64,000 nucleotides of DNA from Pseudomonas phage Pa_AttikonH10, in the sequence record PQ741806.1; one strand, given 5' to 3'. This document shows positions 51,400-52,032 of the stretch, piece after piece. The stretch's first letter is position 1, and every line of letters starts with the position of its first letter. The translations under genes and the position numbers were made by a program. The notes below the pieces were generated by a model. That model was not told where the DNA came from and did not search any database. It saw nothing but the letters and a program-made list of their open reading frames with translations.

Positions 51400-51421
51400 A
51401 GCCCTCTTAGGAGGGCTTTTA
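51400..51421 (+). terminator. intrinsic terminator (AGCCCTC-ttag-GAGGGCT plus TTTTATG)
   Basis: Follows 51155..51391. Confidence 0.65.
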
Positions 51422-51727
51422 TGTCGTATGGCTAATATGCTAGTGAATAATGAATAAAATCGATTATAGAGCAAATTAGAAGGTATTAAAGGCATAAAGA
51501 AAGTCTATCTCTAGACTTATTATTTTTAATTAAAAAAATATAATCTATACTGTGTCTCCTTTTAGGGAGACAGTATGTTTTAGCTAACGCTATTAGAATA
51601 ATGCTAATATTATTTATTATTAGAATAAGGATATACCTTCGGTATAGTTTATTATGAAATAAAAGCCCCTACGGGGCGATCCGATTCCTCAGTTCCACAT
51701 TAGGTAAGATTCATGAGTAATATTTGA

Positions 51728-51756
51728 TTACCAGTATTACTCAATGATACTGGTAA
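51728..51756. other. perfect 10-bp stem hairpin (TTACCAGTAT-9nt-ATACTGGTAA) in a non-coding region
   Basis: Seen directly; no U-tract on either side; followed by TAATATACT. Confidence 0.5.
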
Positions 51757-51913
51757 TAATATACTAGATTATTAACAATATGTATTGATCATTCTGATTA
51801 AGTCAAATTAGTTAATAAACAAATCAATTATCAACGAGTGATAACGGGTATTGATTACTAGCTAAAGAGATTAATTAGGATATCTACATGAGGAGTCGCT
51901 ACCCCATGTATTC

Positions 51914-51946
51914 TGGAGTTTCTCTTTAGCGGGAGACTTAACTCCA
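51914..51946. other. structured hairpin with an 8-nt loop TTTAGCGG (stem TGGAGTT-TCTC / GAGA-ctt-AACTCCA)
   Basis: Seen directly; the loop sequence is identical to that of the adjacent hairpin. Confidence 0.5.
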
Positions 51947-51950
51947 CTTG

Positions 51951-51973
51951 GGAGCCGCTTTAGCGGGCGGCTC
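51951..51973. other. hairpin with an 8-nt loop TTTAGCGG (stem GAGCCGC/GCGGCTC)
   Basis: Seen directly; second copy of the TTTAGCGG loop 5 nt after the first hairpin; followed by an A7 run. Confidence 0.5.
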
Positions 51974-52003
51974 TCACTTAAACAAAAAAAGAATTCAGAT
52001 AAG

Positions 52004-52025
52004 TCCCTCTCCTTTAGGAGAGGGG
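52004..52025. terminator. terminator hairpin (CCCTCTCC-ttta-GGAGAGGG)
   Basis: Between the non-coding hairpin region and the stop of 52033..52338; TTGTTTATC follows. Confidence 0.6.
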
Positions 52026-52032
52026 TTGTTTA

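Follow-up and report, generated by a model that had tools for sequence, protein, structure and literature searches.

Noncoding RNAs (ncRNAs) derived from 5' untranslated regions (5'UTRs) have been described for Pseudomonas phages, with 29 candidates, 17 of them from phiKZ (Putzeys et al. 2024, PMC10914365; supplement bioRxiv 10.1101/2023.10.13.562163). The phiKZ candidate 5'UTR_gp40 was found by Grad-seq and northern blotting as a ~180-nt non-coding species, i.e., the first part of the p40 5'UTR, present together with longer, mRNA-like species; the ~180-nt RNA sediments with RNA polymerase (RNAP)-associated and 30S fractions (Gerovac et al. 2021, PMC8545117). ONT-cappable-seq defined it as the 197-nt unit TU089, which runs from the middle promoter P060 (transcription start site 114922 (-), found by differential RNA sequencing as well) to the transcription termination site (TTS) T053 (114725 (-)), not classed as intrinsic; a 715-nt read-through unit, TU088, has the same start site (Putzeys et al. 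2024, Tables S5/S7). Table S7 lists the RNA as an ncRNA candidate with northern and Grad-seq validation and an RNAfold energy of -65.10. Here we analyzed a gene-free, hairpin-rich region (positions 51400-52030) in a 64,000-nt stretch of DNA from Pseudomonas phage Pa_AttikonH10 (PQ741806.1), in the following called the window, and compared it with this phiKZ RNA.

A gene-free gap matching the phiKZ 5'UTR_gp40 locus

BLAST of 51300-52100 matched 46 Pseudomonas phiKZ-like genomes at 95-100% identity, with phiKZ on its minus strand, and judged from its sequence the 64-kb window is that of a phiKZ-type jumbo phage. Over window 51700-52080 the match to phiKZ 115004-114624 has 100% identity, hence phiKZ coordinates are obtained as 166704 minus the window coordinate. 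In RefSeq phiKZ nothing is annotated between PHIKZ117.3 (window 51155-51391, +) and PHIKZ117.2 (52076-52171, +). This gap of 685 nt is the largest intergenic region of the window, the runner-up having 211 nt, which bears out the gene-free stretch seen in a first-pass annotation made from the raw sequence. The four elements listed there, i.e., a perfect hairpin, twin hairpins with the same loop, direct repeats and small UUCG-loop hairpins, are all present, with small corrections to coordinates and lengths. Upstream of the gap lies a + strand operon with a DnaB-like helicase gene (helicase/117.4/117.3), and further right the converging gp109-gp116/117 block is found on the - strand. An ARAGORN scan of the window yielded no tRNA or tmRNA.

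Window 51782-51979 (+) is, by its sequence, the published phiKZ ncRNA candidate 5'UTR_gp40 / TU089 (197-198 nt) and hence already known, not a new element. Sequence, start, end, strand, probe site and fold energy are the same, i.e., the likeness is that of the element itself. The P060 start site falls on G 51782 and T053 on 51979. The promoter (51733-51782, +) has the elements AATAATATACT - 14 nt - ATG; these, AATAATATACT-AGATTATTAACAAT-ATG, span 51755-51782 with the same geometry as P026, P027 and P033 of the published table. The northern probe JVO-18831 (CCCGTTATCACTCGTTGATAATTGATTTG) is the reverse complement of window 51820-51848. Both the sequence and the fold energy match the Table S7 entry: RNAfold of 51782-51979 gave -65.1 kcal/mol (z = -5.6 against shuffles), which reproduces the published energy exactly, and four stem-loops (SL1 to SL4) with core-pair probabilities >0.93. 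SL1 (51787-51884, +) is a long imperfect stem that houses the probe site, and is followed by SL2 (51885-51910, +), SL3 and SL4. We infer that this phage transcribes the P060 region as phiKZ does.

With one start site giving rise to both a short abundant and a long read-through species, the P060 RNA resembles the 5'UTR-derived small RNAs that arise by premature termination (Putzeys et al. 2024). It differs in that the downstream 'genes' look doubtful, given the nonsense alleles of p39 described below. Since the core of the region consists of a described phiKZ ncRNA and ordinary phage terminators, the finding as such is already known. A phage small RNA or structured ncRNA had been among the proposals of the first-pass annotation, which in this point was right and, working from the raw letters, came upon a phiKZ ncRNA that had already been published; hairpin-rich gene-free gaps are a good cue for ncRNAs.

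The covariance search against Rfam that had been suggested returned chance matches only: at a permissive threshold, all matches in 51000-52500 were below gathering (E >= 0.07), and those at the T003 locus described below were sub-threshold as well. A weak match to 'sar RNA' at 52380-52437 (+) scored 23.5 bits against a gathering threshold of 43 (E = 0.07). We judged it a chance likeness of two stem-loops, the terminator hairpins between PHIKZ117.1 and gp116.

We consider it probable that 51400-52030 serves as a buffer zone where two gene blocks converge, and that the twin hairpins noticed at first are the last two stem-loops of the P060 RNA. From its left edge the gap would contain two + strand terminators, an AT-rich core, a - strand terminator-like hairpin, an inverted repeat, P060 and the structured RNA.

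Tandem stem-loops at the 3' end of the RNA

The twin hairpins are SL3 and SL4, the final two stem-loops of the P060 RNA. SL3 (51914-51946, +) has an outer stem GGAGUU/AACUCC, a 3-nt bulge, an inner stem UCUC/GAGA and the apex UUUAGCGG. SL4 (51949-51976, +) has ten Watson-Crick and two U.G pairs and the same apex. The identical loops described in the first-pass annotation are thus real, and in fact 10 nt, CTTTAGCGGG, are common to both hairpins. In the RNAfold prediction the '8-nt loop' is closed by two U.G pairs onto a UAGC tetraloop, with a closing-pair probability of only ~0.5. Both are GC-rich stem-loops (SL4, -19.3 kcal/mol; SL3, -12.3 kcal/mol). The hairpins of the gap fold far better than shuffles, with z scores from -3.7 to -6.2; those of the twin hairpins are -3.7 and -4.9.

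SL3 and SL4 form a direct repeat of 15 nt at 87% identity with a spacing of 34 nt. They have in common CTTTAGCGGG plus a CACTT tail and the apex C-UU-[UAGC]-GG-G, and the exact 10-mer CTTTAGCGGG occurs at only these two places in the window. SL3 and SL4 are 34-nt tandem duplicates, where SL3 would be a diverged copy of the SL4 unit.

The mapped 3' end T053 (51979) lies 3 nt beyond SL4. At its phiKZ neighbors T004 and T054 the ends are 2 nt beyond the stems, at T051 ~7 nt. Positionally, SL4 behaves like a phiKZ terminator, though without a U-tract or the consensus TTAT tail. The phiKZ-type terminator consensus is BCCYCCCCHWWDGGGRRGGBYTTATKYYGT (Putzeys et al. 2024). SL4 differs from it in having the 8-nt (or UAGC) apex UUUAGCGG instead of the HWWD tetraloop, and the tail ACTTAAAC, AC-TTAA-AC, instead of BYTTATKY within BY-TTAT-KYYGT. 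No U-tract directly follows the stem of SL3 (tail ACTTGGGA) or SL4, and our terminator scan listed neither of them. The observation that the three large hairpins of the gap lack U-tracts was correct; the conclusion drawn from it, that they are not ordinary terminators, holds in part: it agrees with the missing U-tract and with T053 not being intrinsic, whereas the mapped end 3 nt after SL4 is placed as at the neighboring terminators.

How the 3' end of the P060 RNA forms we infer from this arrangement. SL4 would set the 3' end in one of two ways, by making the phage non-virion RNAP terminate without a U-tract or by blocking 3' trimming, and transcripts that pass SL4 and the 52002-52027 terminator would run on to ~715 nt. 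To our knowledge, the termination mechanism of the phiKZ non-virion RNAP is not understood; SL4 and the hairpin at T003 offer natural substrates for this question.

Inside the ncRNA there is also a perfect 10-nt complement, 51861-51870 / 51921-51930 (GCTAAAGAGA / TCTCTTTAGC), the first 7 nt of which are complementary to the SL4 apex (CTTTAGC) as well. An alternative fold that uses it has -61.9 compared with -65.1 kcal/mol, i.e., 3.2 kcal/mol above the minimum free energy (MFE) fold. It disrupts SL3 and the SL1 base and leaves SL4 intact, hence it is not a classical antiterminator.

Conservation of the RNA among relatives

The P060 RNA and the adjacent 101-aa open reading frame (ORF) are confined to the 46 phiKZ-like genomes. 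We assessed conservation in an alignment of 12 phiKZ-like genomes, to which the counts of relatives below refer. Seven of the 198 ncRNA columns were variable, i.e., four of 52 unpaired and three of 146 paired positions. The paired changes are one U.G to C-G, one in a terminal pair, and 51920 T/G, which merely re-registers the SL3 bulge. Apart from 51920, stems and loops of SL3 and SL4 are invariant, and the four-stem fold is kept in 12/12 relatives at -65 to -68.5 kcal/mol.

Neither diverged relatives nor a host origin of SL4 emerged from scans of sequence collections. In IMG/VR, two CTTTAGCGGG copies 15-40 nt apart occurred at 20 loci, all of them unrelated tandem repeats without hairpin context, and no related loci were found via PHIKZ117.4. 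Metagenome contigs had paired CTTTAGCGGG copies at >=120 loci, where flanking complementarity was present in only four, again all tandem repeats. A genome scan with an SL4 18-mer for a host origin gave 44 matches in unrelated GC-rich bacteria and none in Pseudomonas, with an estimated ~17 expected by chance.

Several points weigh against reading the region as described above. The transcript data are from phiKZ only and are carried over to this phage by sequence identity, and the P060 RNA has no known function. Its published fold was drawn with two stems, not four (Gerovac et al. 2021). Compensatory stem changes, suggested as a check in the first-pass annotation, did not appear: there is no double change in the 73 predicted pairs. 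As the relatives are 95-100% identical, they give no covariation signal either way, and the fold is supported by energy, not by covariation. At the 3' end, real termination at SL4 is putative, with no U-tract or TTAT tail and with T053 not intrinsic; moreover, because of the A-run after SL4 (ACTTAAACAAAAAAA), a 3' end read by nanopore from poly(A)-tailed RNA could be blurred over several nucleotides.

The shared apical loop and a third hairpin at T003

The window contains three copies of TTTAGCGG, compared with 1.1 expected, the third of which, at 47563, is without a hairpin. For counts of loops and hairpins we assembled the whole phiKZ genome from fetched pieces. TTTAGCGG occurs there at eight sites and forms a hairpin loop in only three, namely SL3, SL4 and a hairpin at phiKZ 12045-12011 (-). 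The latter, GGAACCCCATTGG-TTTAGCGG-CCAATGGGGAATTCC, has the stem CCCCATTGG/CCAATGGGG with outer GGAA/TTCC, and its last base is the published TTS T003 (phiKZ 12011). Of the two terminators that follow PHIKZ024.1 and the terminase operon, T003 is the second, at a distance of 157 nt from T004; it combines a canonical TTTTATGTTGT tail with the same odd loop as SL4. The 157-nt segment between T004 and T003 is itself structured (z = -3.4).

It is possible, if not the likelier outcome, that the identical apex UUUAGCGG, i.e., two U.G pairs and a UAGC tetraloop, is a recognition element for a phage or host protein or a complementary RNA, in line with the loop-binding factor suggested in the first-pass annotation. 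This is compatible with the buffer-zone reading and would account for the identity of the loops, with two sites in the ncRNA and another one in the T003 hairpin. The three hairpins have different stems, are all on the same strand and lie at or beside mapped 3' ends, SL3 being 34 nt upstream of SL4. Of the loop sequences in the 49 phiKZ DNA hairpins that have an 8-nt loop on a stem of >=7 bp, only two are used more than once. No variation was seen in the loops of SL3 and SL4, where in the same 12 genomes five neighboring hairpins have polymorphic or flipped loops (rough Poisson p ~0.07), and the sedimentation of the ~180-nt RNA with RNAP-associated and 30S fractions would fit a bound partner. 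The T003 hairpin is moreover identical in PA1C-like phages, although their helicase protein is only 63% identical; there, the T004-T003 segment is ~96% identical compared with 79-86% in its flanks. This identity may, however, reflect mosaic exchange, as a tier at ~91.7% identity mixes many phiKZ-like and PA1C-like genomes.

Shared ancestry also accounts for two of the three loop copies, since SL3 and SL4 are tandem duplicates. The Churi/FBPa36-type homologue of T003 keeps the stem (TCCCATTAG/CTAATGGGA, with G-C changed to A-T) and has the loop TTATTAAA; in these phages the segment after T004 is shorter and unrelated. Stems kept without their loops had been named in the first-pass annotation as a refuting case, and this is what is found at T003, whereas the loops of SL3 and SL4 do not vary. 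No further members turned up in phiKZ at one or two mismatches (with stems >=5 bp we saw weak AT/GU stems only, judged chance) or in the IMG/VR, metagenome and genome scans, and no binding partner is known. A loop-specific factor is possible.

More speculatively, hairpins capped by UUUAGCGG could form a small class of their own among the RNA 3'-end elements of phiKZ-type phages. A specific phage or host factor would read them so that the non-virion RNAP terminates without a U-tract, or so that the resulting ncRNAs are protected and marked. With three copies at two loci, the ncRNAs in question would be that of P060 and the conserved segment of 157 nt between T004 and T003. RsmY/RsmZ with their GGA loops and the MS2/PP7 operator hairpins are alike in design only, with one apex sequence on different stems, in tandem; SL3 and SL4 differ from them in having no GGA loop motif and no known partner protein. 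An Rfam match to the MS2 operator at 51886-51909 reached 13 bits against a 40-bit threshold.

Identical apical loops, the SL3/SL4 duplication or T003 as a third hairpin are not mentioned in the portions of Gerovac et al. 2021 and Putzeys et al. 2024 available to us. What is added here is hence a three-member set of TTTAGCGG-loop hairpins at mapped 3' ends. An identical apex on three stems, together with a natural loop-swap allele, provides testable handles on the P060 RNA.

In the PA1C-like genomes phiHQ and PA1C, the post-helicase gap is directly followed by the ORF024 / T004 / T003 / gp23 block, which in phiKZ is ~100 kb away from it. Since the T003 segment is ~600 nt from the helicase-side gap in PA1C-like phages, the two phiKZ loci are neighbors in that lineage. 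At the post-helicase gap these genomes have neither the P060 RNA nor the 101-aa ORF.

Downstream reading frames on both strands

The ncRNA is named after the 5'UTR of the RefSeq genes PHIKZ117.2 (p40, 31 aa) and PHIKZ117.1 (p39, 69 aa), which together span 52076-52384 (+). p40 is intact in the relatives. p39 (52175-52384, +) has premature stops in 4/12 relatives by two independent mutations, at codon 16 in ANB1 and 124.01 and at codon 3 in Churi and GUMS. Both p40 and p39 lack a Shine-Dalgarno sequence as well as a match to a PHROG or Pfam family; for the ORFs that flank the gap, PHROGs and Pfam searches returned self-type PHROGs only and no Pfam. On the opposite strand, a 101-aa ORF (52033-52338, -), the old PHIKZ117 that was dropped from RefSeq, has AAGAGGA 7 nt before its ATG, i.e., a strong Shine-Dalgarno sequence. 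It is intact in 12/12 aligned relatives, aligns at full length in 46/46 genomes and is called as coding sequence in most other deposited genomes. The 101-aa ORF thus looks more gene-like than p40 and p39. With one of the two downstream ORFs broken in many relatives and the antisense ORF unbroken, the '5'UTR' label may be a misnomer.

Should the 101-aa ORF be real, its terminator would be the 52002-52027 hairpin, and the read-through RNA of 715 nt would run antisense to it. One could then regard the P060 transcript as the start of an antisense RNA to old gp117, with SL4 and 52002-52027 gating entry and the 197-nt RNA as terminated by-product; we find this unlikely. TU088 does cover the 101-aa ORF completely on the opposite strand, and amino acid changes in the ORF are mostly conservative. 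Its variable codons, however, are eight synonymous and eight non-synonymous, which indicates mild constraint only, and the ORF was found in the 46 phiKZ-like genomes only. No promoter or transcript is mapped for it, the nearest start, P058, mostly stopping after 76 nt, and RefSeq dropped the ORF, a removal that presumably followed the strand-specific RNA sequencing re-annotation of phiKZ. Single-nucleotide polymorphisms in 52033-52338 are dominated by third positions (11/17). As the third codon positions of the - strand ORF and of both + strand ORFs coincide, this phase does not tell the two strands apart. Nor do protein-mode searches separate the 101-aa ORF from p39, because tBLASTn reads through stops; both were confined to the 46 phiKZ-like genomes.

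The published name implies that the P060 RNA is a cis-acting 5' leader, i.e., an attenuator that controls p40 and p39 by premature termination. Its publication as 5'UTR-derived, with a 197-nt short and a 715-nt read-through product from the same start, would suit this, as would the alternative fold through 51861-51870 / 51921-51930. Yet this fold competes with SL3 and the SL1 base and not, as would be expected of an attenuator, with the 3'-end hairpin SL4. Only one pair varies in that segment, and the change (51812 U to C, opposite G 51861) makes the MFE fold stronger. With the stops at p39 codons 3 and 16 and with downstream ORFs that lack ribosome binding site and family match, we regard control of p40 and p39 by this leader as unlikely, and retain the reading of a structured ncRNA within a buffer zone.

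A similar swap of an old ORF for small opposite-strand ORFs is seen with ORF024 and 24.1/24.2, beside T003/T004.

Inverted repeat upstream of P060 and loop inversions

The hairpin described at first as a perfect 10-bp stem is real and has 11 bp: the inverted repeat 51727-51737 / 51747-51757 encloses the 9-nt loop TACTCAATG (51738-51746), has a fold energy of -15.4 kcal/mol (z = -6) and occupies -55 to -25 relative to the P060 start. With imperfect pairing its arms reach 20 nt, and the extended right arm runs into the A-rich/TACT element of P060. In four of the 12 relatives (FBPa36, Wadjak 2, PA7 and SL2) the arms are the same and the loop is flipped, reading CATTGAGTA, the exact reverse complement, in place of TACTCAATG. 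Extra BLAST places in these and several other genomes may be due to the same loop flip.

Exact flips with unchanged stems were also found at 52013-52016 (TTTA/TAAA) and 52417-52424 (GTTACAGC/GCTGTAAC), and the terminator loops at 51407 and 52478-52481 vary, too. The distribution of the flips is at odds with that of other polymorphisms, which suggests that they are recurrent and hairpin-mediated. Small inversions of hairpin loops, 'flip-flop' between short inverted repeats, are well known from chloroplast non-coding DNA. The likeness lies in the exact reverse-complement loop, the unchanged arms and the recurrence in unrelated lineages; the difference is that here a jumbo phage is concerned, with a promoter-proximal inverted repeat and terminators. 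Recurrent loop flipping in jumbo phages calls for caution when loop sequences or small inversions are used as phylogenetic or functional signals. Unlike their neighbors, the two TTTAGCGG hairpin loops of the window, SL3 and SL4, show no flip, which argues for a strand-specific, i.e., RNA role.

Terminators and the AT-rich left half of the gap

A terminator scan of 50800-52600 gave nine terminator-like sites compared with 0.9 expected in shuffles. Four of them lie in the gap and were not listed in the first-pass annotation: 51400-51417 (+), 51553-51572 (+), 52002-52027 (+) and 51677-51665 (-). The phiKZ-type consensus is well matched by the hairpins at 51400, 52002 and 52469; a GC-rich stem and, 2-3 nt behind it, a mapped 3' end are features that this region shares with the phiKZ-type terminators. 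The terminator of the helicase/117.4/117.3 operon (51400-51417, +; AGCCCTC-TTAG-GAGGGCT followed by TTTTATGTCGT) has -13.1 kcal/mol, z = -6.1 and a phiKZ-type tail that fits ...GGBYTTATKYYGT; its loop is polymorphic in relatives. The hairpin CCCTCTCC-TTTA-GGAGAGGG at 52002-52027 (z = -6.2) directly follows the stop of the 101-aa ORF (-) and is 23 nt past the ncRNA end, with TTTA, TAAA or TGAA as loop in relatives. The scan lists it for the + strand only; in our own reading it is bidirectional, based for the minus strand on the tail ACTTATCTGA, which matches the published consensus.

A second terminator-like hairpin, ATACTGTGTCTCC-TTTTAG-GGAGACAGTAT followed by GTTTT (51547-51576, +; z = -5.1), would likewise act as terminator; no published transcript end lies there. 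Its 6-nt loop TTTTAG is also that of a phiKZ hairpin at 218191, the stem of which (AGACAGTGG) resembles the opposite arm of the 51553 stem. On the - strand, GCCCC-GTA-GGGGC followed by TTTTATTTCA (51665-51677) is a putative terminator at a position with no published 3' end, and none of the published transcript starts or ends falls in the left half of the gap.

This half contains two direct repeats, TATTAGAATAA(T/G)G, 27 nt apart at 51591-51606 and 51618-51633, which agrees with the repeats noticed at first around 51590-51630. In our own reading of the phiHQ sequence, the PA1C-like gap likewise has two copies of the AGAATAAGG type ~28 nt apart with a different spacer. An AT-rich core of ~62 nt (51610-51672) is ~90% identical in eight PA1C-like phages, where the rest of the gap beyond it is unalignable and the helicase protein is 63% identical. 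The core contains the second repeat copy and a mini-hairpin, TATACC-TTC-GGTATA (51631-51646), which is the UUCG-loop hairpin of the first-pass annotation. One pair of this hairpin, 51631/51646, changes in a compensatory way from T-A to A-T between phiKZ-like and PA1C-like phages. In Psa21 and Noxifer the same operon is followed by only 52-54 nt, without a large gap.

That hairpins and repeats act on the DNA, as replication origin, packaging site or protein-bound cruciform by the helicase gene, is most improbable: the gap is AT-rich (20-30% GC at 51450-51850) and adjoins the DnaB-like helicase gene, the repeat spacing is apparently conserved in PA1C-like phages, an 11-bp inverted repeat is present, the loop flips show that inverted repeats interact at the DNA level, and the terminase operon has the third TTTAGCGG hairpin downstream of it, but GC skew tracks gene orientation only with no turning point of the cumulative skew, the direct repeat exists in two copies only and not in the several copies of an iteron-type origin, Psa21 and Noxifer do without the large gap, the mapped transcripts already explain the twin hairpins, and the unflipped TTTAGCGG loops point to a strand-specific RNA role. 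The replication or packaging element proposed at first hence finds no support in skew or repeat number.

By eye and against the published table, no early-promoter motif (TATATTAC) was found in the gap. On the minus strand, 51698-51719 (ATATTACT - 14 nt - AATG) resembles a middle promoter in its geometry and is oriented back to back with P060. An RNA that starts near 51699 (-) and ends at the terminator-like hairpin 51677-51665 would be ~40 nt long; such an RNA is below the size reach of the published nanopore data. At the left border of the gap, PHIKZ117.3 (p41) is nearly all deleted in ANB1 and SL2 (window 51170-51365), and p41 is hence dispensable.

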